The position numbers and the translations under genes are program-made. The notes below the pieces were generated by a model. The model searched no databases and was not told where the DNA came from. It saw nothing but the letters and a program-made list of their open reading frames with translations. Positions 15,967 to 57,894 of a stretch of 64,000 nucleotides of DNA are shown piece by piece. Numbering within the stretch: the stretch's first letter is position 1; each line of letters begins with the position of its first letter. This DNA comes from an uncultured Thermococci archaeon (GTDB lineage Archaea > CAYQAE01 > CAYVLA01), in NCBI GenBank assembly GCA_964549615.1, contig CAZJVP010000072.1, positions 29,312 through 93,311 of the forward strand. Direction: 5' to 3'.

Positions 15967-17325
15967 TCAAGCGCCCGACATCCGCGTGACGGAAACCTCC
16001 CGATAGAGCCTTCTCCTCACCATTAGCGTCCACAGGGCAACGCCGGCGAGCATGAACGCGCCGCTGACGACGAGCCACTCGACAAGGTATATCCAGAAAA
16101 GGGCACGTTCCTTCAGTCTCACTGCGATTTCGCCCAGCCGGCCGATCCGCTCCAAAGCCTCGCCCATCTTCTCCGACGAGGCTTGGTATTCCAGGGCCAA
16201 ATACAAGCCCCTTGCCTCATCGACGATCTCCGATACCCCTTTCAGATCCTGCATGACTGGCGCTGCGTTTGCCCCGAACCGCTCTATGAACTCGGCTAAG
16301 GATATCACATAGACCTGGGCCGAACCAAAGTCCGCGAACTTCCGCCGGAGCCAGTGCACGAGAACGACATCCTCTGGAAGCTTCCTGCCCGTACTGAAGA
16401 GCAGTTCCGCCACCAACATGTCCGGTGCAAAGGGGTTGTACGCAGTGTCCCAGTAACCCCCGATCATGTCCTGGTGGGTCCACGTCACGCCCTTGCCGTA
16501 CGTCCAATACATAGTATGAGGGATCCATCCAGGGCTCTCGAATCGCGGGTCGGGATATATCCCCGAGTACCCATAGCGGTACGGGCCGACCGAGTAGGAG
16601 GTGACGATGGCGCCTGGTTTCGGGATTGCGAGGTTCGTCCCGTAGCCGACGAAGGAAGCCTCGACGCCGGAAAGCCCTATGTAGGGCTTTAGGATCGGCT
16701 CGACCTGCGGATGGGTGTTTATGACGACCCGCATGGGGCCGGACCAGGAGTAGTCTACCCTAACCACCGCGTCCGCATCATTCGGAAAGGCCTCCGACAG
16801 GATCGACTCGGCCCAGGCTGTTGACAGAGCGAGCGAGACGCTCATGACGCTCCTAGTCTGCATGCCCCCGAGCCCATCAAGATAGATCGAGTCGTGCAGC
16901 ATCTTCTGCTGCTCGGGCGTCAGGACGATGATCTCCATGTTTAGCAGCATCATGTACTCGTACTCCAGAAGCTTGGCGTAAGACCGTGGGAAGTACAGCC
17001 TGACATACCTGTATAGCTCCTCGTACGTCCACCCCGCGTGCGCCCTCGCCGGTATCACGGTTGGATCGGTTAGGGGGTCTGCAACGAGCCAAGCTGAGAC
17101 GATAGGCACAGAGCCAACGTGGCCCGCGACGATGACCTTGGCCGGCTTCGGATGGTCGCCGGATGCGATGCCCATCGCTTCCACGAAGGACAGGATCGAA
17201 AGAAGGACGACAAGCCTGCGCTGCAATCGCACCGGCCACAGCCTGCCGTAGAACTCATAAATCTTCCGGGACCCGATCCAAAACACAGCCAGATATGACG
17301 CAGCAGCTTGGGTTTGCCCCTTCAA
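15967..17325 (-). CDS. paralog 1 of a secreted, C-terminally membrane-anchored protein family (unknown function)
   Basis: Signal-like N-terminus (RLQRRLVVLLSILSFVEA; alternative GTG start at 17232). C-terminal ...ALFWIYLVEWLVVSGAFMLAGVALWTLMVRRRLYREV shared with three other ORFs in this window. Confidence 0.7.
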   Translation of the reverse strand: MKGQTQAAASYLAVFWIGSRKIYEFYGRLWPVRLQRRLVVLLSILSFVEAMGIASGDHPKPAKVIVAGHVGSVPIVSAWLVADPLTDPTVIPARAHAGWTYEELYRYVRLYFPRSYAKLLEYEYMMLLNMEIIVLTPEQQKMLHDSIYLDGLGGMQTRSVMSVSLALSTAWAESILSEAFPNDADAVVRVDYSWSGPMRVVINTHPQVEPILKPYIGLSGVEASFVGYGTNLAIPKPGAIVTSYSVGPYRYGYSGIYPDPRFESPGWIPHTMYWTYGKGVTWTHQDMIGGYWDTAYNPFAPDMLVAELLFSTGRKLPEDVVLVHWLRRKFADFGSAQVYVISLAEFIERFGANAAPVMQDLKGVSEIVDEARGLYLALEYQASSEKMGEALERIGRLGEIAVRLKERALFWIYLVEWLVVSGAFMLAGVALWTLMVRRRLYREVSVTRMSGA

Positions 17326-17392
17326 GTAGCCACGATCCCTGGCCGCATAGCAGACTGCAGCCCATGCCCGGGATGGATCTCCGCTCTGTCCC

Positions 17393-18388
17393 TTACTCCC
17401 TCAGCCAGGGCATCATCGCCCTGATCCGAGCGCCGACCTCCTCGATCGGGTGCTGCGCGCCGGCCCTCTCCAACGCCTTGAACCTGGGTCTTCCCGCCTG
17501 ATTCTCAAGAATCCACTCGGTGGCGAACTCGCCCGACCGGATCTCGTCCAGGATCTTGCGCATCTCGTCCCTGACCCTTCCGTTTATGACCCGCTTACCC
17601 CTGGTGAGATCGCCGTATTCGGCGGTGTCGGAGACCCTTCTGCGCATCCCGGTTATGCCCTCAGCATGGATCATGTCCACGATCAGCTTCAGTTCGTGAC
17701 AGACCTCCAGGTAGGCGCACTCCGGCTGGTAACCGGCCTCCACCAAGACGTCGAACCCCGCCTTGATCAACTCCGAGACGCCTCCGCAGAGCACGGTCTG
17801 CTCACCGAATAGATCGGTCTCTGTTTCCTCAGCGAAGGTGGTCTCCAAGACTCCGGCCCTCGTACAACCCAAGCCCTTGGCATAGGCCAAAGCCAGATCC
17901 AGGGCTTTCCCGCTTGGGTTCTGGTGCACGGCCACCAGGGCAGGCACCCCCTTGCCCTGCTCGAACATCCTTCGCACGAGGCTTCCGGGCCCCTTGGGCG
18001 CGACCATGAACACGTCAACGTCCTCAGGAGGTATGATCTGGTGGTAGTGGATGTTGAAGCCGTGGGCAAAAACCAGGGCTTTGCCCGCCGAAAGATGCTC
18101 GACTATCTGGTCCCTGTAGACCTTCGGTTGGATATCGTCTTGGGTCAGGATCGCGATCACGTCGGACGCCTCGGCCAGCCGGGGCGTGGTCATGACGTTC
18201 CATCCAAGGTTCTCTGCCCTTCTCCAGGCCTCGCTCCCCGGCAGCTCGCTGACGATCACCTTCACGCCGCTATCCCTCAGGTTCATGGAATGGGCGCTGC
18301 CCTGTATGCCGGCCCCGCCAACGATTCCCACGGTCTTCCCTCCGAGGTGGGAGAGATCCGCATCCTTATCGTAGTAGATGACGGCCAT
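17393..18388 (-). CDS. ilvC: ketol-acid reductoisomerase
   Basis: [13 protein letters not shown]-terminus and NAD(P)-binding site [14 protein letters not shown]. The ORF track extends to 18556, but the conserved start is ATG 18388. Confidence 0.9.
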
Positions 18389-18577: not shown

Positions 18578-19420
18578 GTGGCAAAGCTGATCGACATGTT
18601 CGGCAAGATCGGCGCATCGACCTGGACGTTCGTCGCCCGGCCCATAGCCGATTGCCTCGAGCCAATCGAGCGAATCGGTTTCAGATCCATAGAGGTGTGG
18701 GCTGATCATGCCGCGCATTTTGACCTGGACGATTCGGACGACGTGAACCGATTGCGAGATCACCTATCCGCGTTCCGCATACGAGCCGAATCTCTGCACA
18801 TGCCCTTCGGTAGGACGCTCGACATCTCCAACCCCGATCCCAAGGTCAGGACGGAAGCCGTGAGGATGACGATTCGTCGCATCAGGGCAGCATCGAAGAT
18901 CCCCGTTGAAGAGGTGGTGATTCATCCCGGACACGCCCGGGAGGTCGGCGAGGAACCCAAGAGATACGAGATGGCGGCCGCAAGCCTTGAACAGATCTGT
19001 TCGGCGGCCGATGACCTAGGGATTCGGGTGTGCGTGGAGAACCTCCACAGCGTCGGCCAACTTGCCTTCTGCGACACGTTGCCCAAGACGTTGCATCTTG
19101 TCAGATCGATCGAGGGTCATGCACCTGGCATCTGCGTCGATACCAGCCACGCCAACCTCATGGGCGGGCTTGCCGAAGAGATGGAGATCTGCGGGACCTC
19201 GGTACTCAGGACGCACATCTCCGACAACCTCGGCGCGAGCGACGATCATCTACCTCCAGGGGATGGCGAGATCAACTGGCAACAGGTTCTCACCAGCCTA
19301 AGGCGGATCTCGTATCGGGGGTCCCTGATGCTGGAGATCGACGGCACCAAGGGACCGGAACGGATCCTCTCGAGGGCCCGCTCCAGGCTCAAGACGATCA
19401 TCTCGAAATGGAGAGGATAG
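18578..19420 (+). CDS. sugar phosphate isomerase/epimerase (xylose-isomerase-like TIM barrel)
   Basis: Family-typical pattern of E/H/D metal ligands (VENLH, HANLMG, LEID). 280 aa. Confidence 0.7.
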   Translation: MAKLIDMFGKIGASTWTFVARPIADCLEPIERIGFRSIEVWADHAAHFDLDDSDDVNRLRDHLSAFRIRAESLHMPFGRTLDISNPDPKVRTEAVRMTIRRIRAASKIPVEEVVIHPGHAREVGEEPKRYEMAAASLEQICSAADDLGIRVCVENLHSVGQLAFCDTLPKTLHLVRSIEGHAPGICVDTSHANLMGGLAEEMEICGTSVLRTHISDNLGASDDHLPPGDGEINWQQVLTSLRRISYRGSLMLEIDGTKGPERILSRARSRLKTIISKWRG

Positions 19421-19469
19421 TACGGTTGCCAGCTGGATCCAACCCTACCTTGGGGGACGGGATGCGAGG

Positions 19470-20246
19470 ATAATCGACGCCCATGTGCACGTCTGGTCCG
19501 ACCGAGACATCCCCATCGTCGTCGCAGAGGCGAGGAGATTGGGCATCGACCGGATATGCGTCTCGTGCCTAGCGGACTGGGACTGGACGTGCTCAGGCAA
19601 CCCCGAGGCTGGCAACGCTATGGTCTTCAGAGCGGCGGACAGCCACCCCGAGATGCTTGGGTATGTCTACGTCGATCCGCGCGAGAAGCAGGAAGCGCTC
19701 AGGCAGATCAACGCGTATCTTGATCACCCCGCCATGATAGGCATTAAGCTGTGGATCTCGTGCCCTGCAAACGACCCCGTTGTGCGTCCGATCGCCCAGG
19801 TGGCCGCTGAGGCCGGCCTAGTGATGCTTGTGCACTCCTGGCGAAGGGGCACCAAGTTATCCAAGGGCTACCAGACCCTGCCGCGGCAGGTCACGGACCT
19901 AGCCTTGCGCTTTCCAGATGTCCCCTTCATAATGGCCCACATGGGCGGGGACTGGGAGACCGGAATCCTTGAGGTGAAGAGGGCCGACAACATCCTCGTG
20001 GACACCAGCGGAAGCATAAACGAGGCAGGCATGATCGAGAAGGCCGTAGCCCTCTTGGGTGCCGACCGGGTGGTCTATGGCTCGGACGCCCCTGGATCCG
20101 CCTATTTGCCCAACCTCGGCAAGATCCTTTCGGCCGAGGTGGCCGAATCCGAGAAACTCAAGATACTCGCCGGAAACATGGAAGCCATTTTAACTCGCAG
20201 AAAGCGCGGGAGCCGGCCCACCATGCCGACAGACCCACTTACCTGA
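19470..20246 (+). CDS. amidohydrolase-2 family metal-dependent TIM-barrel hydrolase; start codon unresolved
   Basis: N-terminal motif IIDAHVHVW (HxH metal site) plus downstream H and D ligands. The ORF track begins at GTG 19485 inside that motif. No canonical start lies upstream in frame; ATA 19470 or ATC 19473 would give MIDAHVH. Confidence 0.7.
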   Translation: MIDAHVHVWSDRDIPIVVAEARRLGIDRICVSCLADWDWTCSGNPEAGNAMVFRAADSHPEMLGYVYVDPREKQEALRQINAYLDHPAMIGIKLWISCPANDPVVRPIAQVAAEAGLVMLVHSWRRGTKLSKGYQTLPRQVTDLALRFPDVPFIMAHMGGDWETGILEVKRADNILVDTSGSINEAGMIEKAVALLGADRVVYGSDAPGSAYLPNLGKILSAEVAESEKLKILAGNMEAILTRRKRGSRPTMPTDPLT

Positions 20247-20262
20247 ACACCGGAGGCATCAG

Positions 20263-21333
20263 ATGGACGTAAGGGAAAGAGTTCACGCTGTGCTCGAGGG
20301 TGAGATGCCCGATAGGCTGCCCCTCCTGATCTACTCAAACCACCTTCCGAGGGGCAGCTTCGAACGCAGGATGAGGAACATGGGGCTGGGAATCGATGTC
20401 CGTTGCACGGTCTACAGATCCCATACGCCCAACGTGAGGACCGAGACCAGGACGGTGGGGGACTACACCGACACGGAGATCATCACGCCCGTGGGGAAAC
20501 TGCACTCGAAAAGGCGGATCAATCTCAAGTTCCAACTCACCGGCGGAAGCTGGATTGTCAGGCACCCCGTCGCCACGATCGATGACCTAGAGATAATGGA
20601 ATTCGTCATCCAGGACACCGTCTTTGAGCCACAGTACGACGACTACCTTCATCTCCAGGCCGAGCTGGAGGGCGACGGCGTGGTCACGGCCGGCGGCCCC
20701 TACACGCCTCTCATGCGGATGATGATAGACTTCATGGGATTCAGGAACTTCGCCTTTTCATACAAGCGCGACCCGAAAGCGATCGAGAGGACCATGGACA
20801 TATTGGACAAGAAGTACTTGGAGCTGTACAGAATAATTGCGGAGTCGCCAGCCGAGATAGTCAGGATAGGAGATAACATAGACGAGGTCATCGTGCCAGC
20901 ACGCCTTTTCGAGCGGTACTGCCTGCCCTACTACAACAAGTACGCGAGGATCCTGAAGAGGGCCGGAAAGAAGACGATTTCGCACATGGACGGGAGGCTC
21001 AGATCGCTCAAGGAGCTGATCGGGGCAACCGAGCTCGACGCCATAGAGGCCTTCACGCCTCCGCCCACCGGAAACCTCCCGATATCAGAGGCGAGGGAGG
21101 CTTGGAAACCCAAGGCTCTCTGGTTGAACTTCCCGGAGACGGTCTTCCTTCTTTCAGCGGATGAGATACGGCGCTACACGCTTGGTCTCCTTCGCGAGAT
21201 GGGCGAGGGGGCTGGGTACATAATCAGCATAACTGAGGACATCGAGCCCAGCCACTACAGGAAGGCGCTGGAAACACTCACGACGACCCTTCACGATCAC
21301 GGCAAGCTCCCCCTGAGCCTCGGGTCCTCCTGA
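20263..21333 (+). CDS. uroporphyrinogen decarboxylase (URO-D/MtaA) family protein
   Basis: 356 aa with URO-D-fold family resemblance across the length. Second family member at 47903..49015. Confidence 0.75.
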   Translation: MDVRERVHAVLEGEMPDRLPLLIYSNHLPRGSFERRMRNMGLGIDVRCTVYRSHTPNVRTETRTVGDYTDTEIITPVGKLHSKRRINLKFQLTGGSWIVRHPVATIDDLEIMEFVIQDTVFEPQYDDYLHLQAELEGDGVVTAGGPYTPLMRMMIDFMGFRNFAFSYKRDPKAIERTMDILDKKYLELYRIIAESPAEIVRIGDNIDEVIVPARLFERYCLPYYNKYARILKRAGKKTISHMDGRLRSLKELIGATELDAIEAFTPPPTGNLPISEAREAWKPKALWLNFPETVFLLSADEIRRYTLGLLREMGEGAGYIISITEDIEPSHYRKALETLTTTLHDHGKLPLSLGSS

Positions 21334-21536: not shown

Positions 21537-22751
21537 TCAACCGCTCTGTATGAGCTTGGTAAGCCTGACCTCCTTGTACAGCCGGCGCCTGACCATGACC
21601 AACCAAAGGACCGATCCACACAGGATGAATGTTCCGGTAACCGCGCACCATTCAACGACGAACATCCAGAACGTGGCGGCGTTTCTAGCCTTGATTGCCT
21701 GGGCCATTGCGGCCTCACAGAAGTCCAGCACCTCCGCATAGGCCTCCAGAGCCTGCTCCATTTGGCACTCAACGTAGAGATCGGCCGCCCTCTTCTTCTT
21801 CAGCTGGATTTCCCCGGCCAACTTTGTCAGCCCAACGCTGCTTCCCCCCATCCTCTCGACGAAGTCGATCATGTTGTAGAATGTGGTCAGCGCCAGCTCC
21901 GATTCCCTTATCCGTCGCCTGACAATGTAGACGCTGTCGAGGTCGTCGGGCAGACTGCGGCCCGCTAGGAAGAGCATCATGTTTATCGCGTAGTCTCCGT
22001 AGTACTTCCATCGCATGAAGATGCTCCCGCCCTCTGGCGTCCAGTCGGCGGACTGCCCCAACGTTCTCCCCTTGCCGATATCCCACCACATCAGAAACGG
22101 CCCCTCGCCGAATGCGCCCTGCTCAAGCACCGCCAAGAGCTTAGCAGACATCCTAGGCTTGATGTTACAGCTCTTGTAGAAGAAGCCGTAGCTCTCGAGG
22201 GTATCGAAGGGCAGGCTTCTGATGAACTCGTCCTCCCAGTCGAGTATCTTGATCCTGCCGCTCGGTCGCGATGCCGGGTAGGCGATCATGTCGCAGGGCA
22301 GGACATCGGCGACGCTCGTGGGCTCCCAGGAAGGGTAGGACCCTCCGCCGCCAGCGAAGCTCTCCGCGCCCCCGATCATGACCAGGCCTAACCCCTCTTC
22401 CACAACCCCTCTGGACATCCAAAGGAAGTGCTCGTCGCGAAATGCTTCCCTGTTTGCGTCGCTGAGCACGATGACATCGTTCTCAAGAAACTTGGAATAG
22501 GTCCTGGGCATGTAGCTTCTCATGCTCTTCTTTATGATGTCTATGCCCTGGTGAACCGTACATGCGTAGACGGCGGAGCAGTCCAGGAGAGGGTCCGACT
22601 TGAGCATGGGAAATGGATTGGGAACCCCTATGGCATCCCCTGCGTAGAGGACCCTGATCCTTCCGGTCACGGGATCGGCCCTTATGTCGCGGGCCTCGAC
22701 AACCGGGAGGACCAAGAGGACAAGCAGAGACGATAGCAGATCACACCTCAT
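21537..22751 (-). CDS. paralog 2 of the secreted, C-terminally membrane-anchored protein family
   Basis: Signal peptide MRCDLLSSLLVLLVLPVVEA (ATG 22751; ORF track extends to 22931). Conserved C-terminal FWMFVVEW...LVMVRRRLYKEV. Confidence 0.7.
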   Translation of the reverse strand: MRCDLLSSLLVLLVLPVVEARDIRADPVTGRIRVLYAGDAIGVPNPFPMLKSDPLLDCSAVYACTVHQGIDIIKKSMRSYMPRTYSKFLENDVIVLSDANREAFRDEHFLWMSRGVVEEGLGLVMIGGAESFAGGGGSYPSWEPTSVADVLPCDMIAYPASRPSGRIKILDWEDEFIRSLPFDTLESYGFFYKSCNIKPRMSAKLLAVLEQGAFGEGPFLMWWDIGKGRTLGQSADWTPEGGSIFMRWKYYGDYAINMMLFLAGRSLPDDLDSVYIVRRRIRESELALTTFYNMIDFVERMGGSSVGLTKLAGEIQLKKKRAADLYVECQMEQALEAYAEVLDFCEAAMAQAIKARNAATFWMFVVEWCAVTGTFILCGSVLWLVMVRRRLYKEVRLTKLIQSG

Positions 22752-28637: not shown

Positions 28638-28639
28638 CC

Positions 28640-40793: not shown

Positions 40794-40817
40794 ACCGCCC
40801 GCCCAGAGGCAGGACCC

Positions 40818-41380: not shown

Positions 41381-41650
41381 ATGTCCTTGAGAGTGATACT
41401 CTATGGCATCCTAAGGTCGATCGCGGGAACGAAGGAGCTTCGCCTGGATTCGTCGACCGTTTCCGAGGCGGAAGAGGAGCTGTCCCGTCGCTTCGGACCG
41501 AGAATGCGCGAGTATCTGTACGACCAGGATGCGGTCGAGTCGCTCACGGTCGTCCTCAATGGCAGGGTTCTGTCCAAGGACGAGGCACGAGCCGCCAGGT
41601 TGCAGGGCGAGGACGTACTCGAGCTCCTTTCGCCCATCGGCGGAGGATGA
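41381..41650 (+). CDS. MoaD/ThiS-family ubiquitin-like sulfur-carrier protein
   Basis: ~90 aa ending in ...LSPIGGG (C-terminal Gly-Gly). Immediately upstream (6 nt) of the AOR gene. Confidence 0.7.
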   Translation: MSLRVILYGILRSIAGTKELRLDSSTVSEAEEELSRRFGPRMREYLYDQDAVESLTVVLNGRVLSKDEARAARLQGEDVLELLSPIGGG

Positions 41651-45038: not shown

Positions 45039-45977
45039 TCAAAGCAGCGAACACAGATAATCCACGGCCGCCTCGGCTATGCTGCGATCCGTCACCTCTT
45101 GCAGTCCCTGCCAGCCTGGGAAGGCGTTGACTTCCAGCACGTAGTAGTCTCCCTCTACGGAGGGCAGAATGTCCACCCCAACGATCTCGCCGCCAACGGC
45201 CTCGGCGGCCTGCAATGCGATCTCATCCACATCGTCTTGGGAAGGGAGGGGCTGCGCCCCGGCAGATATGTTGGTCCTCCAGCCTTGGGGATTGAACCTC
45301 CTCATCTTCGAAACGACCTCGCCACCTATCACGAGCGCCCTGATGTCGTACTGTGGATGTTCGATGAACCTCTGAACGTAGATGACGTCCTTACCGTACT
45401 TAGCCTGGAACCATGAGACGTAGTCAACGATGTCCCCCTCCCTCATCTCCTCTGGGATCATTATGATTCCCCTGCCTTGCAGCCCCGTTATCGGCTTCAG
45501 AACGCAGGGCCTGTTGGACCTGATGAAATCAACGGCAAGATGAACGCTCTCGGTGATCAGAGTCGTGGGCATCCTCACTCCTCTTGAGACCATCCTCAGC
45601 GTCATGCTCACCTTGTTTCTGCAGGTCTCTATCGTCTCGATCGAGTTCACGATCCTCGTGCCCCGTGAGCGGAGCTGCCTTAGGAACTCGAGTTTGTAGA
45701 GCGCCTCGGGCAACTGGTCGAAGCCCAATGAGATCACGTATATCAGGTCGTAGAAGAGCTCATCCCCAGCCATCCTGAGCGAGTCGTACGAGCATTCAAC
45801 CGTCCCGTCCCGAACCTCTGTTGCAAAAAGCCATGGAAAGATTGCCTGGTGCGGGATGCGCCTGCCGGACAGTATCGGCTCCAGTTGACGGAGCCTCCAG
45901 CTCTCAGGGTTGACTCCCAGTAGACCGATCAAGGTGAAGCCCCTATCCAACCCCGAAGCGAGCGAACGATTTAACAC
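45039..45977 (-). CDS. RimK-family ATP-grasp ligase (alpha-L-glutamate/peptide ligase-like)
   Basis: ATP-grasp fold motifs (VLKPITGLQGRGI, VQRFIE, VLEVNAFPG). 312 aa. Confidence 0.8.
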   Translation of the reverse strand: MLNRSLASGLDRGFTLIGLLGVNPESWRLRQLEPILSGRRIPHQAIFPWLFATEVRDGTVECSYDSLRMAGDELFYDLIYVISLGFDQLPEALYKLEFLRQLRSRGTRIVNSIETIETCRNKVSMTLRMVSRGVRMPTTLITESVHLAVDFIRSNRPCVLKPITGLQGRGIIMIPEEMREGDIVDYVSWFQAKYGKDVIYVQRFIEHPQYDIRALVIGGEVVSKMRRFNPQGWRTNISAGAQPLPSQDDVDEIALQAAEAVGGEIVGVDILPSVEGDYYVLEVNAFPGWQGLQEVTDRSIAEAAVDYLCSLL

Positions 45978-47902: not shown

Positions 47903-49015
47903 TCAGATGTTCGTCCGGATTCCTGCAAGGGATGTCCTGCATCGGTTGTAATGACAGAAGTTTTGCCAGGATACATCAGGCGGGATCCAGTGATCGGCGT
48001 GCGGAATGTACCCCCCACTCTCCACGACCGGCCAGACTCTCTTTACCTCCTTCTCGATCTCGCACTTGCCCTTTGACAGTGCGCGCTTGTCGATGCCTCC
48101 CATCATCACCAGTCTCTTTCCGTACTGCTTTCGAAGCGAGCAAACGTCCATGTTTGCCTGGACCTCGAGCGGCCAGATCCCGTTCAGGCCCGCCCGCAGC
48201 CAGTACGGTATGAGCGCACGGACGTCGCCATCGCTGTCGACGCATATCAGGTCCACGCCCCTGGAGCGCAGGTACTCGCACACGATCTCGTAGCGCGGAA
48301 CCATGAATTCCTTGAACAGCTCGATGCTGATCAGCGGCCCGTTCCTGTATGCCATGTCCTCCCAGAAGCCGAAGGCGTCCAGGTCGATGTCGTCCAAGAC
48401 CTTCTTGAGGATCGCGATGATGACCTCGACTCGCTGATCCATCATCCTCTCCACGAACTCCGGCTTCTCGTAGAAGGCCCTGCAGAGGTTCTTCAGCCCA
48501 AGCAGGTTGCGAAGCGGTCCGAAGAATCCACCCCACCTGCCTTGGAAGTACATCAATGGCGCCTTCCTATGTTTCCAGTCCTTGACCATTGAGTCCCAGT
48601 TTGGTGGAAACCTTTGCTTGAGCTTCGGGGCCAACCTCTTTCTAACGAGACGATCGAAGTCCTCCTCGGTCTCCACCGGAAACTTCACGAACTGGGGCAT
48701 GCTCGACTGCTCCCTGCCGCCCTTGAACTCCCTCCTAACCACCCCGTCGGGGTCGACGTACAGCAGAGTCTCCCCGTCATCCTGGATTACCTCGCGCGCG
48801 AACGGAGGACAGGGACCCGCGGAAACCGGAACTCCGAGGATAGGATCGAGACAAAAGATCTCGCCGATCGGCTTGCCGTCCCATCCTTCACGACGCCATC
48901 TCTCAGCGGTCTCTGGCCACATCCCTTCGTCCGAGATGAAAGGGCGATCGGGCTTCTCGAAGTGCGTGACAGCACGATATCTCTCTCGCGCGTCCATCCG
49001 GGCTAGACATGACAA
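47903..49015 (-). CDS. uroporphyrinogen decarboxylase (URO-D/MtaA) family protein, paralog 2
   Basis: 370 aa URO-D-fold. Same family as 20263..21333. Confidence 0.75.
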   Translation of the reverse strand: MSCLARMDARERYRAVTHFEKPDRPFISDEGMWPETAERWRREGWDGKPIGEIFCLDPILGVPVSAGPCPPFAREVIQDDGETLLYVDPDGVVRREFKGGREQSSMPQFVKFPVETEEDFDRLVRKRLAPKLKQRFPPNWDSMVKDWKHRKAPLMYFQGRWGGFFGPLRNLLGLKNLCRAFYEKPEFVERMMDQRVEVIIAILKKVLDDIDLDAFGFWEDMAYRNGPLISIELFKEFMVPRYEIVCEYLRSRGVDLICVDSDGDVRALIPYWLRAGLNGIWPLEVQANMDVCSLRKQYGKRLVMMGGIDKRALSKGKCEIEKEVKRVWPVVESGGYIPHADHWIPPDVSWQNFCHYNRCRTSLAGIRTNI

Positions 49016-49076: not shown

Positions 49077-50336
49077 TCAGCTCCTTCGCGTGGTGCCCAC
49101 TGCCCTGTAGAGCCTGCGCCGCACCATTAGAGACCAGATGGCGACGCCGGCGACCATGAGGGCCCCAGAGACGGACATATACTCTATGAGATACACCCAG
49201 AGGAGGGCCCTCGACTTCGCCTCCATCGCCGCTCGCTCGGCCGCGCTGAACTCTTCCTCGAGCTTCTCAATCCACTCGAGAGCGCCGGGATAGTCCTCCT
49301 GCAAATACCTCGAGTCAACCTCCTTCTTGGCGGCCTTCACGGCCTTGAGCTTCTCATCGACCTCCTTCGTGCTTGCCCCGAAGTTCTCGATGAAACTCAG
49401 GAAGTCTCCGATCAAGGCGAGACGAGTTGAATAACTCTGAAAGCTCGCCCTGATGGTGTGCATCATTACCGGGTCATCTGGGCACTCCATGCCAACGACG
49501 AAATAGTCTAGGTTCAGGACGAAATCGATCCAGTAGGTCCAGCGGTCCTGCCAGATCCCGGATCCCTTGTAGAAGCCGTGGAGGTCGCAGGTGAACGAGA
49601 GCGCCCGGCCATTACCCACATCCCAGTAGGCAAGGAGGGGCTCTTTCTGCGGCCGCACCTCCATGACTAGCTTGCACCCTTCTTTCAGGGTCACTTGGTT
49701 TATCTCCATCAGGGGAGGCGCAGACTCGAAGGGCAGAGACCTCGTCAGAGTGTTTTCCTCAAGAACCCTCACCCACATCGGACCCGTGACGAATTTCTGG
49801 GTGAGCGAATTGGTCGGGAGGAGGTTCACGTCCAGGTAGCTGCCCTCCCACGTGGAGTGGGCCTGTGGCCCTCCGCCGAAGCCGCGGTAGCCGTCGGTCA
49901 TGGCCAACCCCATGCCGCCCTCCTTGACCGCCCTCGTGAAGTGTACCTGCCAGGCACCGGAGATCACGTTCTCGTCGCATCCCGAGAGTTGAACCATGTC
50001 GTAGCGGGACACAAGCTCATCATAGGTTCGCGGGAAGTAAACGCGCATGGCGCGATCGATATCCTCCTGCGTGTTTCCGTACATCCCGCCCTCCCCCCAC
50101 CAGACGGTTATCGCGGGTATCAGCGTCGGCTTGATCTTCGGGTCCGAAAGGAAGATCAAACCGGGCTTGGTGCCCCAGAACGGCGAGCCGATGTAGAGAA
50201 GCCTGAGCCTTCCCGTCTCCGGGTCCAACCTCTTCTGCATGCCAGAGACCATCCCACCTGCGAGGAGCAGCACGGCGACGATGATCCCTATGATCCGATG
50301 ACAAATGAGATTGGATTTAGGCTGCAACGCTCCCAC
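49077..50336 (-). CDS. paralog 3 of the secreted, C-terminally membrane-anchored protein family
   Basis: Signal-like N-terminus (IIGIIVAVLLLAGGMVSG). Motifs LDPETGRLRLLYIGSPFWG, MRVYFPRTYDELV, GGMGLAMTDG. C-terminus LLWVYLIEYM...SLMVRRRLYRAV. Confidence 0.7.
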   Translation of the reverse strand: MGALQPKSNLICHRIIGIIVAVLLLAGGMVSGMQKRLDPETGRLRLLYIGSPFWGTKPGLIFLSDPKIKPTLIPAITVWWGEGGMYGNTQEDIDRAMRVYFPRTYDELVSRYDMVQLSGCDENVISGAWQVHFTRAVKEGGMGLAMTDGYRGFGGGPQAHSTWEGSYLDVNLLPTNSLTQKFVTGPMWVRVLEENTLTRSLPFESAPPLMEINQVTLKEGCKLVMEVRPQKEPLLAYWDVGNGRALSFTCDLHGFYKGSGIWQDRWTYWIDFVLNLDYFVVGMECPDDPVMMHTIRASFQSYSTRLALIGDFLSFIENFGASTKEVDEKLKAVKAAKKEVDSRYLQEDYPGALEWIEKLEEEFSAAERAAMEAKSRALLWVYLIEYMSVSGALMVAGVAIWSLMVRRRLYRAVGTTRRS

Positions 50337-52629: not shown

Positions 52630-54825
52630 ATGGAAGGAAGTGAAGACGATTCCGATCCGGGCAGTAGTCTTGGTAGCGGGAGCGTTAACAGCAAAAGTAA
52701 TGGGGAAAACAACGGGAACGGTTCGGTGTATGAGAGGCTGAGGCAGCTCGGCGCAAACATGGACGAGATAGATCGGGTGAAAAGGAAATACCCGATGAAG
52801 ATCACGAGGTACTACCTCAGCCTCATAGAGCACAAGGGCGATCCCATATGGAAGCAGGCGGTGCCTGCCGCTGAGGAACTCGAGGACAATTTCAACGTAG
52901 AAGATCCTCTCAGGGAGGAGGTGCATACCCCTGTCCCCTGCCTTGTGCACAAGTACCCTGACAGGGTGCTCTTACTGGCAAGCAGCTTGTGTGCGATGTA
53001 CTGCAGGTTCTGCACCAGGAAGAGGAAGGTAGGCAGGATACAGCAGATTCCGATGGAGGACATCTTCCGCGCGATAGATTACATCAAGGAGCACAAGGAG
53101 GTGAGGGACGTCATCGTGTCGGGCGGCGATCCGCTCATGAGGCCCGACGACGAGATAGAGGAGATACTCAAGAGATTGAGGCAGATCCCGCACGTCGAGA
53201 TCATCAGGATAGGGACGAGGATGCCGTGTGTTGCGCCCCAGAGAATCACCCCCCGGCTGGTGGGCATGCTCAAGAAGTACCATCCACTTTTCGTGAACGT
53301 TCACTTCAACCATCCGAGGGAGATCACCCCGGAATCATCGGCGGCCTTGAACCTGCTTGCGGACGCAGGCATACCACTGGGCAGTCAGACGGTATTGCTG
53401 AGGGGCGTCAACGACGATCCACATGTCATGATGGAACTCATGCACCGGTTGATCAAAAACCGCGTCAAGCCCTATTACATCTACCAGTGTGACCTCGTGA
53501 AGGGCGTCGAACACTTCAGGACGCCTGTCCAGACGGGCATCGAGATAATCAGAAGCCTCCAAGGCTTCACGTCGGGTCTCTGCGTTCCCCACTTCGTGAT
53601 AGACGGGCCGGGAGGCAAGGTGCCGGTTTCGCCCCAGTACGTCAAAGAGATAACGCCCGACCAGATAGTGGTCACCAACTTCATGAACAACCTCTATACC
53701 TACCCGGGGCTGGTACGAAATCAGGAGAAGCAACTGGCGAACAAGAAGGTGAAGAGGATCGGGATCGCGTTCAACCTGAAGAAGGAGTTGGGCAAGACGG
53801 ACAGGTTCGACAAGTACTCGGAATTCGATGACCTCGAAACCATAAACGCGATAAGGTTGGCCATCGAGAAGGCTGGGTACGACGTGGTCCTGCTAGAGGC
53901 CGACCGGGACTTCACGTTCAACCTCAGGGAGGCTAACGTCGACTTCGTTTTCAACATCGCCGAGGGCATTCAGGGGGAGTGCAGGGAATCCCATGTCCCC
54001 GCCATACTCGAGATGTTCAACATCCCGTACACCGGGTCGGGCGTCCTGACGCAGGCGATAACGCTCAACAAGAGCAGGAAGAAGGAGATACTCAGCTACT
54101 ACGGCATACCGACCCCGAGGTGGCAGATATTCAGGAATACCAACCAGAAGCTCGATCCACTGCTTTCATTTCCGCTCATAGTGAAGCCCGATGCGGAGGG
54201 CTCGAGCGTAGGCATAACGAACGACAGCCTAGTCTTCGATGCAATATCGCTGAAGAAGCAGGTCAGCAAGATACTCAGGGAGTACAAGCAACCGGCGCTC
54301 GTTGAGGAGTATGTCGATGGCAGGGAGTTCACGGTGTCGCTCCTTGGCAACCCCCCCAAGGTCCTGCCCATCATCGAGATAAACTTTGACCATCTCCCGG
54401 ATGGCCTGCACAAGTTCGATTCCTGGGAGGCGAAATGGATATACGATAATCCCAGCAGCCCCATCGATCCCTTGATCGTCCCGGCTGACCTGAAGCCCAA
54501 GCTGAAGGCGCAGATCGAAAGGGTCGCCAAGCAGACGTTCGAGAAGCTCGGGTGCGTCGACCTAGCGAGAATAGACATACGGCTGAACCGCGAAGGAGTG
54601 CCTTACGTCCTGGATGTGAACGCCCTCCCGGGACTCATGCCAGATCCGAAGAAGAACTCCAGATTCCCAAGGTCCTGCTATGCTGCGGGGATGACGTACG
54701 ACGACATCATACTTGCCATCCTCCATTCCGCAATGAAGAGGTATAACCTGCTTCTTGAGCCCGTGAGGGAGCCTGCCAGCGCCAGGAACGGGAAGACGGC
54801 GCCCCTAGAGGGTGAGGCCGGCTGA
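52630..54825 (+). CDS. fusion protein: KamA-family radical-SAM 2,3-aminomutase (N) + D-Ala-D-Ala-ligase-type ATP-grasp (C)
   Basis: Low-complexity N-terminus, then KamA-family features (KYPMKITRYYLSLIE, CAMYCRFC = CxxxCxxC, VSGGDPL). C-half has Ddl-like motifs IGIAFNLKKE, IPYTGSG, LIVKPDAEGSSVGI, EEYVDGREFTV, LDVNALPG. Confidence 0.85.
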   Translation: MEGSEDDSDPGSSLGSGSVNSKSNGENNGNGSVYERLRQLGANMDEIDRVKRKYPMKITRYYLSLIEHKGDPIWKQAVPAAEELEDNFNVEDPLREEVHTPVPCLVHKYPDRVLLLASSLCAMYCRFCTRKRKVGRIQQIPMEDIFRAIDYIKEHKEVRDVIVSGGDPLMRPDDEIEEILKRLRQIPHVEIIRIGTRMPCVAPQRITPRLVGMLKKYHPLFVNVHFNHPREITPESSAALNLLADAGIPLGSQTVLLRGVNDDPHVMMELMHRLIKNRVKPYYIYQCDLVKGVEHFRTPVQTGIEIIRSLQGFTSGLCVPHFVIDGPGGKVPVSPQYVKEITPDQIVVTNFMNNLYTYPGLVRNQEKQLANKKVKRIGIAFNLKKELGKTDRFDKYSEFDDLETINAIRLAIEKAGYDVVLLEADRDFTFNLREANVDFVFNIAEGIQGECRESHVPAILEMFNIPYTGSGVLTQAITLNKSRKKEILSYYGIPTPRWQIFRNTNQKLDPLLSFPLIVKPDAEGSSVGITNDSLVFDAISLKKQVSKILREYKQPALVEEYVDGREFTVSLLGNPPKVLPIIEINFDHLPDGLHKFDSWEAKWIYDNPSSPIDPLIVPADLKPKLKAQIERVAKQTFEKLGCVDLARIDIRLNREGVPYVLDVNALPGLMPDPKKNSRFPRSCYAAGMTYDDIILAILHSAMKRYNLLLEPVREPASARNGKTAPLEGEAG

Positions 54826-54889
54826 GCCTGGCCTCAGCCTTCTCGTGAAGATTCTTATATCCCCCGGGCCAAATCAGGGGCGACCAGGG

Positions 54890-56500
54890 ATGAAGGTAGG
54901 TATCCTCTACAACGTGGTTGAGACCGTGGAGAGGGGCCTGGACAGCGACAAACAGTCGGATAATGAGATACTGGAGGTTCAACAGCACGTGCGGGCAGCC
55001 CTCCAGGACGATCATGATGTTATCCCCGTCAAGGTCACTAGGACCATCTTCACGCGGTTGGACAAGGAAAGCTTCGATATCATATTCAACCTATGTGAAG
55101 GGTACATGGGAAACGTCCATGGAGAATCATGGATAGCCGGGTTCCTTGACCTTCTGGGAATACCCTACACTGGCTCGGACGCGTTCACCCTGGGGCTCTG
55201 CCTTGACAAGGCGAGAACGAAGGACGTCCTCCGGGCGAACGGGATTCCGACCCCTAGCTACCAGGTCTTTCAGCAGGCAGAGGATCCCCTCCAACAGGAC
55301 ATGAAGTTCCCCCTGATTGTCAAGCCGCTCCACGAGGACGGGAGCGTCGGCATAGACCAAGACTCCGTCGTGCTGAACGAGGAGAAGCTGAGGGCCCGGG
55401 TCGCCTACGTGATCAAGACCTACCGGCAGCCCGCTCTCGTTGAGGAGTTCGTGGATGGTAGAGAGCTAAACGTCGCGATAATGGGCAATCCGCCCGACTT
55501 GGAGGTTCTCCCGATATCTGAGATAATCTTCAACATGAAGGAAGGGAACCACAAGATAGTGGATTTCAACGCCAAGTGGGTTGCGACATCGGAAACCTAC
55601 AAGTCGACCGTGGGAGTTTGCCCCGCTGAGCTGGACAAGGATCTGGAGCAGAGGGTCAAGGACATTGCAGTGAGGGCCTACATTCTAACGAGGTGCAGGG
55701 ACTACGCAAGGGTAGATTTGAGGGTTAGGGATGGCGTCCCTTACGTATTGGAGGTGAATCCGAACCCTGGGTTGGACCATGACGGCGGGTTCGCAAGGAG
55801 CGCGAGGGCAAGCGGATTGGACTACAACCAGATGATAAAGAAGATACTGCAATTGGCAGTCGTTCGAACGAAGGCACGCTCCAAAGAACGATCCCGCAAG
55901 AAAAGGTTCGAAACGGACACGCTGAGGGCGCGGGAGGTCCGCCTCGAGGACATCCCCGTGCTCCTCCAGTGGTTCAACGACACGGTCATATCGAAGTTCA
56001 TGGACGACCCCGGCTCGATCGAGACGGAGGAAAGCCTCATAGAGAAGTTCTTCGTGAAGATTCCCAACGACATAGACCTGCTGGTAGAGGCGAAGGCGAC
56101 GGGCAAACCACTCGGGTACTGCTCTATCTATGACATAGACAGGGTGAACGACAGCGCGGAGATATCGTTTCTCATAGGTGATGGCGAGCAACGTGGGAGA
56201 GGCTACGGCAACGAGATCGTCAGACTTATAGTCCGCATCTGCTTTGAGAGCCTCGGTCTCAACAGGGTCATAGCGTCGGCCACCACGGAGAACATTATGT
56301 CGATCAAGGCACTTCAGGCAGCAGGGTTCAGGAGGGTGGGCCTCCTCAGGGAATACCAGGTGGTGGACGGGAAGAGGTATGACGAGGTGCTTTTTGAGAT
56401 GCTCAAGGAGGACTATCTGAAGCTCCAACCGACAGCCCAACCCTCGACACAAACCCCGACACAAACCCCGACACAGGTCCCCCAAGCAACAGTCCGGTGA
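54890..56500 (+). CDS. fusion protein: D-Ala-D-Ala-ligase-type ATP-grasp (N) + GNAT acetyltransferase (C)
   Basis: Ddl-like motifs VGILYNV, IPYTGSD, LIVKPLHEDGSVGI, EEFVDGRELNV, LEVNPNPG, paralogous to the C-half of the upstream gene. GNAT motif A (QRGRGYGNEIV). TQTPTQTPTQ low-complexity tail. Confidence 0.8.
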   Translation: MKVGILYNVVETVERGLDSDKQSDNEILEVQQHVRAALQDDHDVIPVKVTRTIFTRLDKESFDIIFNLCEGYMGNVHGESWIAGFLDLLGIPYTGSDAFTLGLCLDKARTKDVLRANGIPTPSYQVFQQAEDPLQQDMKFPLIVKPLHEDGSVGIDQDSVVLNEEKLRARVAYVIKTYRQPALVEEFVDGRELNVAIMGNPPDLEVLPISEIIFNMKEGNHKIVDFNAKWVATSETYKSTVGVCPAELDKDLEQRVKDIAVRAYILTRCRDYARVDLRVRDGVPYVLEVNPNPGLDHDGGFARSARASGLDYNQMIKKILQLAVVRTKARSKERSRKKRFETDTLRAREVRLEDIPVLLQWFNDTVISKFMDDPGSIETEESLIEKFFVKIPNDIDLLVEAKATGKPLGYCSIYDIDRVNDSAEISFLIGDGEQRGRGYGNEIVRLIVRICFESLGLNRVIASATTENIMSIKALQAAGFRRVGLLREYQVVDGKRYDEVLFEMLKEDYLKLQPTAQPSTQTPTQTPTQVPQATVR

Positions 56501-56679
56501 AAAGAGTAGCGGGAATGTCCTTGGATCGGTCTACCGACCCTGGGCAATGGGGGGCCGTTCGTGAGATCGCGTGTCGGGGTTAGCACGCAACCACGGGGGC
56601 GAGGCCCTGCAAAGCAAGGACGCGGGACGCAGCGAGGAAACGTTTTAAGTCGGCGGCCTTTGCGTACCTCGAACGAAGG

Positions 56680-57894
56680 ATGAGAACATTGGGCTGCTTC
56701 TGTTCCGCCAAGCATGTTTGGATCCTGGTAGCCTTACTTCTTGTGATCTGGCTGGCCCCTGCGGTCCCGGGCGCCAAGGAGGATCTGAGGATCAACTGTT
56801 TCCTGCTGGGCTCGGTCTTGCGGGGAATCTGTCCCCTTCCAGAGTATTTCTCTGAGGACCCCCTCTTCACGTACGAATCCGACCCTCAACAGGCCGGTCT
56901 CTCACTAGAGGAGAGGAAGAGGCTCGATCGCCTTTACTTCCCGCGCAACAAGCAGACCCTGATCACCAAGTTTGACATGTACTTCGTCTACGACCCCCGC
57001 CTTGACCATTTCACGCCGAGACAGTTCATGGACCTCTATGAAGCATCTGTCGAGGAGGGGATGCCCTCGCTTTGGGCCTTCGGGCCTTCATATGGCTACA
57101 TCTGCCAGACCATCCTTAACGACGTCCTGCCCATATCAGCCTACGATGGCTACTACCACAAACCTTGGCACGTGGTATTCCGCAGGAATTTGGAGCCCGT
57201 TTTCACGCCTTTCATCGAGCTCGGGATGGAGAGAGTGCCAGGGGAGGCCTACGGTCGGATGCAGCCGCGCCAGGGCACGGTCACCTGGGCGGACATGAAG
57301 CCCTTCGATCTCCCTTGGATGGTTTCCTGGAGGCCCGGGCCAAAGGGAGGGCTGTCGTGGGTCTGCGCCGACGAGTTCAACGTGGTTTGGTGGGCCCTGA
57401 CCTTGGAGACTAGGGGTATGAATCCCTACGCCATAGACCTCATGACCAACTTGGTCCTTTACTCCCTGAACAGGCCGTTGATAAGTGACATCCAGCTCAG
57501 GCGTAACGCTAGGGCGAGGCTTTCGAGCTTCAGGTCCGAGGTGATCGGCATACTCTCGATGTTGGAGTTCGCGGACAAGTTCGGAGCCAACACCATCCCG
57601 CTATCAAAGAGGATCGCGGAGTTGGAATCCGACGTTCAGGATGCGCGGGACAGGTACCTCGAGCAGGACTACGCGAATTCGATAAGCCTCACCGAGGCAG
57701 CATCACAGACCCTCGCGAAGATAGGAACCGATGCTGTGCGCCTGAAGGATCAGGCGCTCTTCTGGGTTTTCGTGTCCGAGTGGCTTACCGTAACCGCGGC
57801 ATCCTTGTTCGGCGGAGCAGTAGTGTGGACGCTGATGATCCGCAGAAAGATGTACAGAGCCGTCAAGGTAACTAGGGTCAAGCCAAGCTACTGA
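56680..57894 (+). CDS. paralog 4 of the secreted, C-terminally membrane-anchored protein family
   Basis: Signal peptide HVWILVALLLVIWLAPAVPGA. Motif LYFPRNKQTL. C-terminus LFWVFVSEW...TLMIRRKMYRAV. Confidence 0.7.
   Translation: MRTLGCFCSAKHVWILVALLLVIWLAPAVPGAKEDLRINCFLLGSVLRGICPLPEYFSEDPLFTYESDPQQAGLSLEERKRLDRLYFPRNKQTLITKFDMYFVYDPRLDHFTPRQFMDLYEASVEEGMPSLWAFGPSYGYICQTILNDVLPISAYDGYYHKPWHVVFRRNLEPVFTPFIELGMERVPGEAYGRMQPRQGTVTWADMKPFDLPWMVSWRPGPKGGLSWVCADEFNVVWWALTLETRGMNPYAIDLMTNLVLYSLNRPLISDIQLRRNARARLSSFRSEVIGILSMLEFADKFGANTIPLSKRIAELESDVQDARDRYLEQDYANSISLTEAASQTLAKIGTDAVRLKDQALFWVFVSEWLTVTAASLFGGAVVWTLMIRRKMYRAVKVTRVKPSY

Follow-up and report, generated by a model that had tools for sequence, protein, structure and literature searches.

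A little-known family of archaeal surface proteins with an undescribed membrane-spanning tail

The 64-kb window considered in this study (the whole stretch of DNA that was analyzed) contains four related genes, to which I will refer as W1 to W4. They are shown in Table 1, along with the features and neighboring genes discussed below. All four had been named as open reading frames in a preliminary description of this DNA, and all four were found. When the six-frame translation of the window is searched with an HMM of the four proteins, these four and no others are matched. The true start of W1 is probably the GTG at 17232, since the 421-aa product then resembles the orthologues of W1. W2 has a longer alternative GTG start at 22931, which would give a protein of 464 aa. 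The window is marked as archaeal by an SRP RNA.

Table 1. Features of the window and predicted segments of W3. Positions are nucleotides of the window, except where residues of the protein are indicated.
Feature	Position	Strand	Description
W1, family paralog	15967..17325	-	longest ORF 452 aa; family HMM E 4.5e-179
W1 C-terminal block	15982..16104	-	ALFWIYLVEW, TM helix, WTLMVRRRLYREVSVTR
W2, family paralog	21537..22751	-	404-aa ORF; PF07090 match
W2 C-terminal block	21555..21677	-	ATFWMFVVEW, TM helix, WLVMVRRRLYKEVRLTK
W3, family paralog	49077..50336	-	419 aa; protein chosen for AlphaFold2 model
W3 C-terminal block	49086..49208	-	ALLWVYLIEY, TM helix, WSLMVRRRLYRAVGTTR
W4, family paralog	56680..57894	+	404-aa ORF; family HMM match
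W4 C-terminal block	57754..57876	+	ALFWVFVSEW, TM helix, WTLMIRRKMYRAVKVTR
W3 signal-like helix	residues 9-29		AlphaFold2 prediction
W3 alpha/beta domain	residues 44-280		AlphaFold2 prediction
W3 three-helix stalk	residues 289-318, 324-345, 349-409		AlphaFold2 prediction
W3 TM helix	residues about 386-405		prediction
W3 cytoplasmic tail	residues 406-419		prediction
C2_280	4585..5424	-	N-terminal TM helix, then tandem Ig-like beta-sandwiches
URO-D-like gene	20263..21333	+	PF01208, E 4.5e-16; convergent with W2
URO-D-like gene	47903..49015	-	PF01208, E 8e-13; 61 nt downstream of W3, same strand

The four proteins are paralogs, as the preliminary description held, homologous over their full length at 24-31% identity. 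Pairwise BLASTP comparisons give E-values from 1e-21 to 1e-48, and all pairs remain significant (E 8e-4 to 4e-34) if the last 60 residues are cut off, so the paralogy does not depend on the tail. The most divergent ectodomain among the four is that of W4. Relatives of W1 (59% identity) were found in CAZUNO and CAYVLA, two of three metagenome-assembled genomes (MAGs), and on one metagenome contig; those of W2 (62-66%) and W4 (54%) were found in CAYVLA. Because W1, W2 and W4 each have relatives in MAGs at 54-66% identity, the diversification is old.

The proteins share a C-terminal block that the preliminary description had singled out and that is present in all four window copies. Its consensus is RALLWVYxIEW, followed by a TM helix of about 20 residues and then WxLMVRRRLYREVxxTR. 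No other part of the family is as well conserved: mean identity per column is about 0.4 in the ectodomain but 0.61-0.74 over the final 40 residues, and in 294 unique sequences A377, W380, E385, W386, G397, W401, M404, R407, Y410 and T416 are 89-99% invariant. Near-invariant positions are found on both sides of the membrane, and conservation extends beyond the Arg cluster, to L409, Y410, V413 and T416 (4-10 residues past it). Third codon positions of the four window copies are only 34-56% identical, and the block is therefore kept by selection at the level of protein and not by gene conversion.

A profile of the tail only (55 positions) yields matches of 85-100 bits, and just 418 representative clusters reach E<=1e-3 in 1.84 billion proteins. 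For this reason the similarity amongst tails cannot be merely compositional, a case that the preliminary description had raised against itself. None of the best 150 of these 418 clusters exceeds 468 aa. Of 144 among the best representatives listed, 122 have an ectodomain or stalk of the family; 22 are fragments no longer than 229 aa, and about seven of these fragments have unrelated N-termini and look like chimeric or broken gene calls. As nearly all carriers sampled belong to the family by one of these parts, the tail is no modular tag. No model in Pfam or NCBIfam describes the juxtamembrane/TM/tail block. It also lies outside the known CTERM classes, as had been supposed: no NCBIfam model reaches its cut-off. 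The CTERM models (PGF-, PEF-, PIP-, VPXXXP-, CGP-, PVV-CTERM and others) were compared with the window proteins and with a set of 99 family members, and PVV_CTERM alone gave matches, to 19 of the 99 (best E 8e-4, below the 27-bit cut-off). The one such match inspected, in W1, spans the TM helix and RRR only.

The preliminary description also compared the ectodomain to GATase1-like or ThuA-like folds, and both Pfam and structure-profile matches agree. PF07090 (GATase1_like, equivalent to COG5426) matches W2 with E 3.9e-12 and 46.7 bits (cut-off 27) and W3 with 27.8 bits (Pfam gathering score 27). W1 and W4, scanned individually against Pfam, gave no match; both align with the family over their full length. 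A profile of 99 family members matches three solved PF07090 proteins, 2gk3 (STM3548), 3soz (STM1381) and 3rht (from Planctomyces limnophilus), at E 1e-19 to 1e-22. The fold is thus the alpha/beta fold of class I glutamine amidotransferases, closest to the solved members of PF07090, and the ectodomain is a PF07090 domain, with ThuA and the GIFT domains of IFT52 and OST48/Wbp1 as structural relatives. In the literature on PF07090 proteins I found no function or ligand assigned, and STM3548 is uncharacterized.

Of the ectodomain motifs proposed earlier as recurring among the four proteins, (M/V)RxY(F/M)PR is indeed found in all of them, but the others are found only in part. DPxTGRxRxLY occurs only in W2 and W3. 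GGxGLxMxGG is clear in the same two, degenerate in W1 and absent from W4, and FxExFGA occurs in W1, W3 and W4, its equivalent in W2 being FVERMGG. Over the 99 aligned members, the near-invariant residues of the ectodomain are P, R, Y, G, W and D, with no Cys, His, Ser or Glu in any invariant or near-invariant column. The Cys-His-Glu triad of catalytic class I glutamine amidotransferases is absent from the family, and the position of the nucleophile elbow, where Cys would be, seems to be taken by the near-invariant Gly of GxGLxM.

The solved PF07090 proteins differ from the archaeal family in extent. They have about 250 residues, consist of the domain alone and were deposited as cytoplasmic, whereas the archaeal proteins add a signal peptide, a three-helix stalk and the juxtamembrane/TM/tail module. 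Motifs specific to the family (RxYxPR, W163 and FGAN) are absent from 2gk3. The AlphaFold2 model of W3 (pLDDT 91.9) predicts the arrangement given in Table 1, in which the last helix of the stalk crosses the membrane and reaches the Arg cluster without a break (pLDDT 96-98).

The orientation of the proteins was judged from simple counts of charge and hydrophobicity. The signal-like N-terminus noticed earlier is seen in these counts, as an uncharged stretch (median 18 residues) with a net charge of +1 ahead of it, and in W3 as a helix of the AlphaFold2 model. At the other end, the median tail measures 16 residues from the first Arg onward and the net charge is +4.4, as compared to -0.3 for the outer flank of the C-terminal TM helix. 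In the reading favored below, W1 to W4 belong to an archaeal family of type I membrane proteins.

The lineage-specific expansion suggested by four copies in one stretch of DNA proves to have been understated, for three MAGs labeled "Hadarchaeota" contain at least 66, at least 45 and at least 17 distinct copies. These copies are dispersed among glycan-catabolic genes, with up to 7 in 21 kb where they are densest. Their neighbors include URO-D-like genes, sulfatases, GFO/IDH/MocA oxidoreductases, xylose-isomerase-like TIM barrels, GH28, BNR, NAGLU and esterases. The commonest neighbor family of paralogs elsewhere is URO-D-like (20 non-redundant instances, 9 immediately adjacent). The two URO-D-like genes of the window fall in one neighbor cluster, and the one downstream of W3 is probably co-transcribed with it.

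The usual operon partner of paralogs elsewhere belongs to the C2_280 family, which accompanies about a tenth of the copies; the member in the window is adjacent to none of W1 to W4. In a recurring module, a family gene lies side by side with C2_280 and C6_325, the latter a ThuA-like protein with a coiled coil and a C-terminal TM helix that hhalign matches to the family with 89.8% probability. About half of 151 unique family genes have no co-directional neighbor within 120 nt, and the operonic neighbors of the 151 are mostly singletons. The DNA flanking some 150 family genes (about 1.1 Mb) encodes 31 polytopic membrane proteins, of which ABC-2 permeases are the commonest (4 of the 31).

The explanation I favor, at slightly better than even, is that these proteins place a variable ectodomain on a constant and permanent docking anchor. 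A Sec-type signal peptide would export the N-terminal part, leaving the GATase1-like alpha/beta domain, without a catalytic triad, outside the cell on a rigid three-helix stalk. The last helix of the stalk would run on into the juxtamembrane RALLWVYxIEW and the TM helix, and end in a cytoplasmic tail that is short and strongly basic, RRRLYREVxxTR. The ectodomains of the paralogs have moved far apart (24-31% identity), and purifying selection keeps the base of the stalk, the TM helix and the tail nearly constant. I infer that the tail stays uncleaved and that this constant module docks every paralog to one partner in the membrane or cytoplasm, and that the variable ectodomains differ in what they bind at the surface, glycans or partner proteins of the surface being the probable targets. 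Binding of this kind is proposed because of the relatives of the fold and the glycan-catabolic neighborhoods. Against the explanation as a whole count the many family genes that lack a co-directional neighbor, the mostly singleton operonic neighbors, the small share of copies accompanied by C2_280 and the attributes of sorting signals considered next.

The preliminary description read the tail otherwise, as a sorting signal. The family does share with tripartite signals (PGF-CTERM/ArtA, PEP-CTERM, GlyGly-CTERM, MYXO/CGP-CTERM and PVV-CTERM) the order of motif, TM helix and Arg cluster, and both occur in many copies behind an N-terminal signal peptide, or in the family a signal-like one. The block might then be a new signal of this type, cleaved by an enzyme akin to archaeosortase, rhombosortase or CPBP, with the ectodomain re-anchored or released. 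Six of the eight attributes in a published list for C-terminal sorting signals (10.1101/2023.06.07.544157) are formally present. The block is near the C-terminus, it includes a TM helix and an RRR cluster, its motif starts with at least three near-invariant residues (A377, W380, E385, W386), the N-terminus resembles a signal peptide and there are multiple copies per genome (17-66 per MAG, as lower bounds). Short bacterial homologues without the tail exist (2gk3, 3soz and 3rht), and the PVV_CTERM matches, weak as they are and under the cut-off, point the same way. However, the seventh attribute, that carriers of a signal include many pairs dissimilar outside it (10.1101/2023.06.07.544157), fails here, since the tail is limited to one homologous family with few exceptions, all fragments. 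Nor is there a low-complexity or flexible linker: the 30 residues upstream have 0.4% Pro and are 67% helix-forming, and the motif is predicted to lie inside one continuous, high-confidence helix joined to the folded stalk. Conservation of G397 in the TM helix and of the residues past the Arg cluster would be unexpected in a segment to be discarded. No exosortase, archaeosortase, rhomboid or CPBP protein is among the 31 polytopic proteins of the flanking 1.1 Mb, where only Peptidase_M50, PrsW and YhfC appear in their place, and the window contains no archaeosortase, rhomboid or CPBP gene. The sorting-signal reading is weakened by these results, the search for an enzyme having covered the window and the flanking DNA, and I consider it quite unlikely.

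The proteins might also be auxiliary subunits of ABC-2 transporters, like GldG, with the TM helix and tail docked on the permease or ATPase. GldG shares a GIFT-type fold (PMC7226087). Like the family, GldG (PF09822, ABC_transp_aux) has a membrane-anchored extracytoplasmic domain, and at one locus (L042) the gene order is alike, a tight operon of ABC ATPase (7985-8749), ABC-2 permease (8751-9914) and family gene (9923-11203). At another (L040), an ABC ATPase gene overlaps the start of the family gene. Both family genes encode the canonical tail, and the first rank of ABC-2 permeases among nearby polytopic proteins fits as well. These are, however, just one or two of 151 family genes in an ABC operon, and W1 to W4 have no transporter nearby. 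Most family genes by far lie away from transporters, unlike GldG of the GldAFG ABC-2 system, and the largest number of copies per genome is far above the number of ABC-2 systems seen. ABC ATPases make up 13 of 920 neighbor genes, not obviously over the genomic background, and PF09822 is unmatched in the four window proteins, even at E<=1. GldG retains a TM helix at each of its ends, while the N-terminus of the family resembles a cleavable signal peptide. I regard a role as transporter subunit as unlikely. A third possibility, catalysis outside the cell by the ectodomain (as amidotransferase, peptidase or carbohydrate-active enzyme) with the tail as an ordinary anchor, is very improbable. The fold of a class I glutamine amidotransferase is confirmed and the neighborhoods are rich in catabolic enzymes, but Cys, His, Ser and Glu are nowhere invariant in the ectodomain, no activity has been assigned to the closest structures, and an ordinary anchor is not expected to be the most conserved part of its protein.

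A docking anchor of the sort favored here has a counterpart in Wbp1/OST48, a non-catalytic type I subunit with a GIFT domain, whose single TM helix makes contacts within a membrane complex (PMC7226087). OST48 (DDOST)/Wbp1 and the archaeal family have in common the type I topology, a GIFT-like extracytoplasmic domain, a single C-terminal TM helix and a short cytosolic tail. In contrast to the family, OST48 lacks a three-helix stalk and has two domains in the lumen, and it is a single-copy subunit of one complex (the eukaryotic oligosaccharyltransferase), as opposed to dozens of paralogs. The Pfam scan of the window proteins found no match to the OST48 family, and homology was not detected at the level of sequence.

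Orphan extracytoplasmic receptors that work with few shared membrane partners are known, for example the Bug/TctC solute receptors and the immunoreceptors with a common adaptor. The family may be likened to these in its dispersed paralogs, divergent ectodomains and constant coupling element, with many copies beside different catabolic genes. Homology to either is lacking and the likeness serves as a working model. It is possible, and I put it forward only tentatively, that the family constitutes a previously undescribed, receptor-like archaeal superfamily, in which dozens of GATase1/GIFT-like ectodomains per genome, for distinct surface or glycan ligands, are connected through the constant module to one shared membrane or cytoplasmic machine.

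For PF07090/COG5426, represented by three crystal structures, all bacterial, the archaeal branch supplies a cellular setting (extracytoplasmic, stalked, with partner proteins and glycan-catabolic neighborhoods) and a very large natural series of variants. The juxtamembrane/TM/tail block is in itself a compact and highly specific sequence marker. Docking on a shared partner would make it a rare example, among prokaryotes, of one coupling module used by many receptors; cleavage, on the other hand, would mean a new sorting system. Should the receptor-like reading be true, the family may be the main system of substrate capture or sensing in a lineage rich in sulfatases and glycan catabolism. With at least 66 copies in one of the MAGs, the family probably has a central role in the interaction of these uncultured archaea with their substrates.

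The four genes that the preliminary description had picked out (W1 to W4) are indeed present at the positions listed in the table below, although the start of W1 is probably GTG 17232 rather than 17325. Aligned over their full lengths, the encoded proteins are 24-31% identical, bearing out the paralogy claimed for them (pairwise BLASTP E values of 1e-21 to 1e-48). The pairs are still significant when the last 60 residues are removed, and the four are therefore true paralogs, not unrelated proteins with a common tail. An HMM built from W1 to W4 and run against the six-frame translation of the window matched these four only, revealing no further paralogs or pseudogenes. The C-terminal block described earlier (RALLWVYxIEW motif, transmembrane helix and basic tail) is present in all four, but some of the proposed ectodomain motifs appear in only two or three in the alignment. 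The window is archaeal, judging from its archaeal SRP RNA (RF01857, 186 bits, full length), and contains ordinary chromosomal genes (dnaK, ADP-PFK, ilvBN and ilvC, hypF and hypE, AOR).

A search of 185,579 species, each represented by a single genome, for the peptide W[STA][LV]M[VI]RRRLY gave 103 stretches, 99 of which encode relatives. Three MAGs labelled "Candidatus Hadarchaeota archaeon" account for all of the best 80 matches, and a few homologues bear the source label Theionarchaea. Copies were counted as distinct motif-bearing C-termini in the flanks fetched around matches, and the counts are lower bounds. The three MAGs hold at least 66, at least 45 and at least 17 copies (57, 39 and 12 of them 360 amino acids or longer), with up to seven in 21 kb, so that the lineage-specific expansion proposed in the preliminary description is real, and the four copies in 42 kb simply reflect how densely so large a family is spaced here. 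W1, W2 and W4 have relatives in the MAGs at 54-66% identity, as compared to 24-31% to one another, and W3 has metagenome relatives at 63-84%, values that point to an old diversification in which individual paralogs have been maintained. The literature searched offers nothing specific on the ecology of the host lineage.

The suggestion that the ectodomain recalls GATase1/ThuA-like folds is now backed by two sorts of match: W2 and W3 score above the Pfam gathering threshold of PF07090 (GATase1_like), and a profile built from 99 members of the family hits the solved PF07090 proteins 2gk3, 3soz and 3rht with E values of 1e-19 to 1e-22. The AlphaFold2 model of W3 (pLDDT 91.9, pTM 0.87) consists of an N-terminal helix, an alpha/beta domain and three long helices, the last of which starts in the stalk, crosses the hydrophobic segment and reaches the Arg cluster without a break. 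From the model, the conserved FGAN loop, which joins the first two stalk helices, would lie beside the RALLW motif, at the membrane surface. Nowhere in the ectodomain does the 99-member alignment conserve a Cys, His or Ser, and the family is therefore not a catalytic amidotransferase. The literature on PF07090, COG5426 and STM3548 contains no functional data and no PF07090 protein with an assigned function, and STM3548 is still uncharacterised according to a 2026 paper.

The signal-like N-terminus noted earlier holds for the family, with an uncharged stretch (median 18 residues) preceded by net positive charge and followed by small residues at its end. The C-terminal tail (median 16 residues) has a net charge of +4.4, and the flank across the transmembrane helix from it a net charge of -0.3. 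Charge and hydrophobic stretches together thus predict a type I arrangement, with an extracellular alpha/beta domain and stalk and a cytoplasmic tail.

Conservation peaks in the last 40 residues, where the mean column identity across 116 homologues is 0.61-0.74, as compared to about 0.4 in the rest of the protein. Among 294 unique sequences, the frequencies (W3 numbering) are 0.93 for A377, 0.99 for W380, 0.85 for Y382, 0.96 for E385 and 0.92 for W386 in the juxtamembrane motif; 0.89 for G397; 0.94 for W401, 0.98 for M404 and 0.85-0.95 for R406-408; and 0.89 for L409, 0.97 for Y410 and 0.98 for T416 beyond the Arg cluster. Since the hydrophobic core of the block spans about 386-405, conserved residues lie on both sides of the membrane. 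Mere composition does not account for the likeness of the tails, in view of profile scores of 85-100 bits and very few matches (418 at E<=1e-3, when a tail-only profile was searched against 1.84 billion representative proteins). Nor do gene conversion or recombination cassettes: third-position identity in the block is 34-56% among the four window copies, and identical amino acids share a codon in only 3/13 to 11/24 cases. Such divergent synonymous codons indicate purifying selection on the protein, not recent gene conversion.

The predicted cytoplasmic tail of all family members carries a near-invariant L-Y-R-E-V-x-x-T-R (W3 residues 409-417). Its YxxV element has, as a pattern only, the form of YxxPhi, a eukaryotic sorting motif, and on the same kind of grounds Y410 and T416 could be candidate phosphorylation sites.

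The preliminary description likened the C-terminal block to a sorting signal of the exosortase/archaeosortase type. Six published attributes of such signals (10.1101/2023.06.07.544157) are formally common to both: proximity to the C-terminus, multiple copies per genome, a signature motif, a transmembrane helix, an Arg cluster and an N-terminal signal peptide. The attribute that tells a tag from a domain is that the carriers have nothing else in common, and here the family tail differs, for its carriers are nearly all homologous. The family ectodomain or stalk is found in 122 of 144 new tail-bearing representatives, and the other 22 are fragments of at most 229 aa, about seven with unrelated N-termini. 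In all of the best 150 of the 418 tail matches the block is at the very C-terminus, and none of these proteins exceeds 468 aa. Seven short metagenomic gene calls from this search (P0126, P0150, P0160, P0192, P0194, P0206 and P0249) have an unrelated N-terminus joined straight onto the KDRALLW-TM-tail block; they probably arose by chimeric assembly or are broken genes, favoured by the conserved 3' ends that many paralogs have.

Other properties also speak against a sorting signal. The stretch of 30 residues before the motif favours helix (67% A/E/K/R/L/Q/D, 0.4% Pro) rather than forming a Ser/Thr/Pro-rich linker, the W3 model embeds the motif in one continuous helix of high confidence, and conservation reaches 4-10 residues past the Arg cluster. 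As had been supposed, the tail matches no known CTERM class: all NCBIfam CTERM models fall below cut-off, and the only one to appear, PVV_CTERM, does so weakly in 19 of 99 members, covering just the transmembrane helix and RRR in W1, the one match inspected. No archaeosortase, rhomboid or CPBP protease is among the 31 polytopic membrane proteins encoded in about 1.1 Mb of DNA around the family genes. I therefore consider it unlikely that the block is a sorting signal.

Of 151 unique family genes, roughly half stand without a co-directional gene within 120 nt, and the neighbours that do share an operon are mostly singletons. One recurrent neighbour, the 280-aa family C2_280, occurs 16 times, 13 immediately adjacent and often overlapping the stop codon of the family gene; in related genomes it usually lies downstream of a family paralog and is translationally coupled to it. 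The window member, with dnaK on one side and a methyltransferase gene on the other, has no paralog next to it. The 325-aa family C6_325 (seven neighbours, at loci L014, L025, L029, L047, L057, L061 and L075) usually follows C2_280 directly, which suggests a three-protein surface module together with the family protein. C6_325 is a second ThuA/GATase1-like protein anchored in the membrane; it is smaller and has a coiled-coil stalk and, at the C-terminus, a transmembrane helix whose start (LALLWALGL) echoes the ALLW motif. Its matches are to ThuA and weak, with no sequence match in the PDB, and its relation to the family is at profile level only.

URO-D-like genes (PF01208) are the commonest neighbour family, contributing 20 non-redundant members to the 920 neighbour genes, nine immediately adjacent. 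They have co-expanded with the family (loci L002, L007, L012, L049, L075), in contexts that are non-methanogenic and glycan-catabolic. Sulfatases (14) and GFO/IDH/MocA oxidoreductases (8) are also found, as are GH28, BNR sialidase-like, acetyl-xylan-esterase-like and GDSL esterase genes, xylose-isomerase-like TIM barrels, amidohydrolases and, in the window, a NAGLU-type GH89. The NAGLU-type gene and TIM barrel near W4, with the gene group beside W2, give the paralog-holding regions a glycan-catabolic character. General enrichment of ABC transporters is not supported (ATPases are 13 of 920, with one clean operon). That operon, at L042, is tight, with an ABC ATPase, an ABC-2 permease and the family gene third; at L040 an ABC ATPase gene overlaps the family gene, and ABC-2 permeases are the commonest polytopic membrane family near family genes (4/31).

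Elsewhere in the window, two unusual fusion genes overlapping by 14 nt recall the AblA/AblB pathway for N-epsilon-acetyl-beta-lysine, with ligase domains in addition; the (PTQT)n end of the second contains a tandem repeat (56439-56475). The roughly 3 kb at 38500-41650 have only short ORFs, with GC3 of 0.45-0.6 as compared to about 0.75 in adjoining genes, and show no Rfam match, tandem repeat or composition anomaly.

Features of the window and of the W3 model
Feature	Position	Strand	Remarks
ORF, 455 aa	650-2017	+	no Pfam family
C2_280 member	4585-5424	-	N-terminal TM helix, tandem Ig-like beta-sandwiches; no Pfam family
SRP RNA	11622-11932	+	
W1	15967-17325	-	
TIM barrel, amidohydrolase, URO-D genes	18578-21333		
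URO-D-like gene	20263-21333	+	convergent with W2
W2	21537-22751	-	
ORF, 722 aa	36336-38504	+	no Pfam family
RimK-like ATP-grasp gene	45039-45977	-	near fusion pair
URO-D-like gene	47903-49015	-	61 nt downstream of W3
W3	49077-50336	-	
Radical SAM (lysine-2,3-aminomutase-like) + D-Ala-D-Ala-ligase-type ATP-grasp fusion	52630-54825	+	
ATP-grasp + GNAT acetyltransferase fusion	54812-56500	+	(PTQT)n repeat at end
W4	56680-57894	+	
ORF, 410 aa	57968-59200	-	directly downstream of W4, opposite strand; no Pfam family
NAGLU-type (GH89) alpha-N-acetylglucosaminidase, 1005 aa	59939-62956	+	
Xylose-isomerase-like TIM barrel	62987-63943	+	after NAGLU-type gene
N-terminal helix	W3 residues 9-29		AlphaFold2 model
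Alpha/beta domain	W3 residues 44-280		AlphaFold2 model
Three long helices	W3 residues 289-318, 324-345, 349-409		AlphaFold2 model

Old, divergent ectodomains by the dozen, a near-invariant stalk base, transmembrane helix and tail, and the non-modularity of that tail fit a family with a variable head and a constant anchor. In such a family the constant module would act as a permanent anchor and dock onto a shared membrane or cytoplasmic partner, and the ectodomains would bind glycans or surface proteins; all that goes beyond the anatomy (docking, ligand, fate of the tail) I infer. In glycan-related systems, the fold relatives (Wbp1/OST48, GldG, ThuA and glycosidase accessory domains) serve as scaffold or accessory domains and are not catalytic. 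Sugar binding has been proposed for the GIFT domains of GldG, IFT52 and Wbp1, and Wbp1, the closest architectural precedent together with OST48, is a non-catalytic type I subunit whose transmembrane helix touches other OST subunits (PMC7226087). By analogy with these relatives, and given the glycan-catabolic neighbourhoods, binding of glycans or surface proteins is the most plausible role of the ectodomains. A special case of the docking partner, plausible for one or two members, would be an ABC-2 transporter, as with GldG. Pfam, NCBIfam and the searchable literature hold no description of the stalk/TM/tail module, its conservation, the partner genes or the size of the expansion. The ectodomain family itself was already known.
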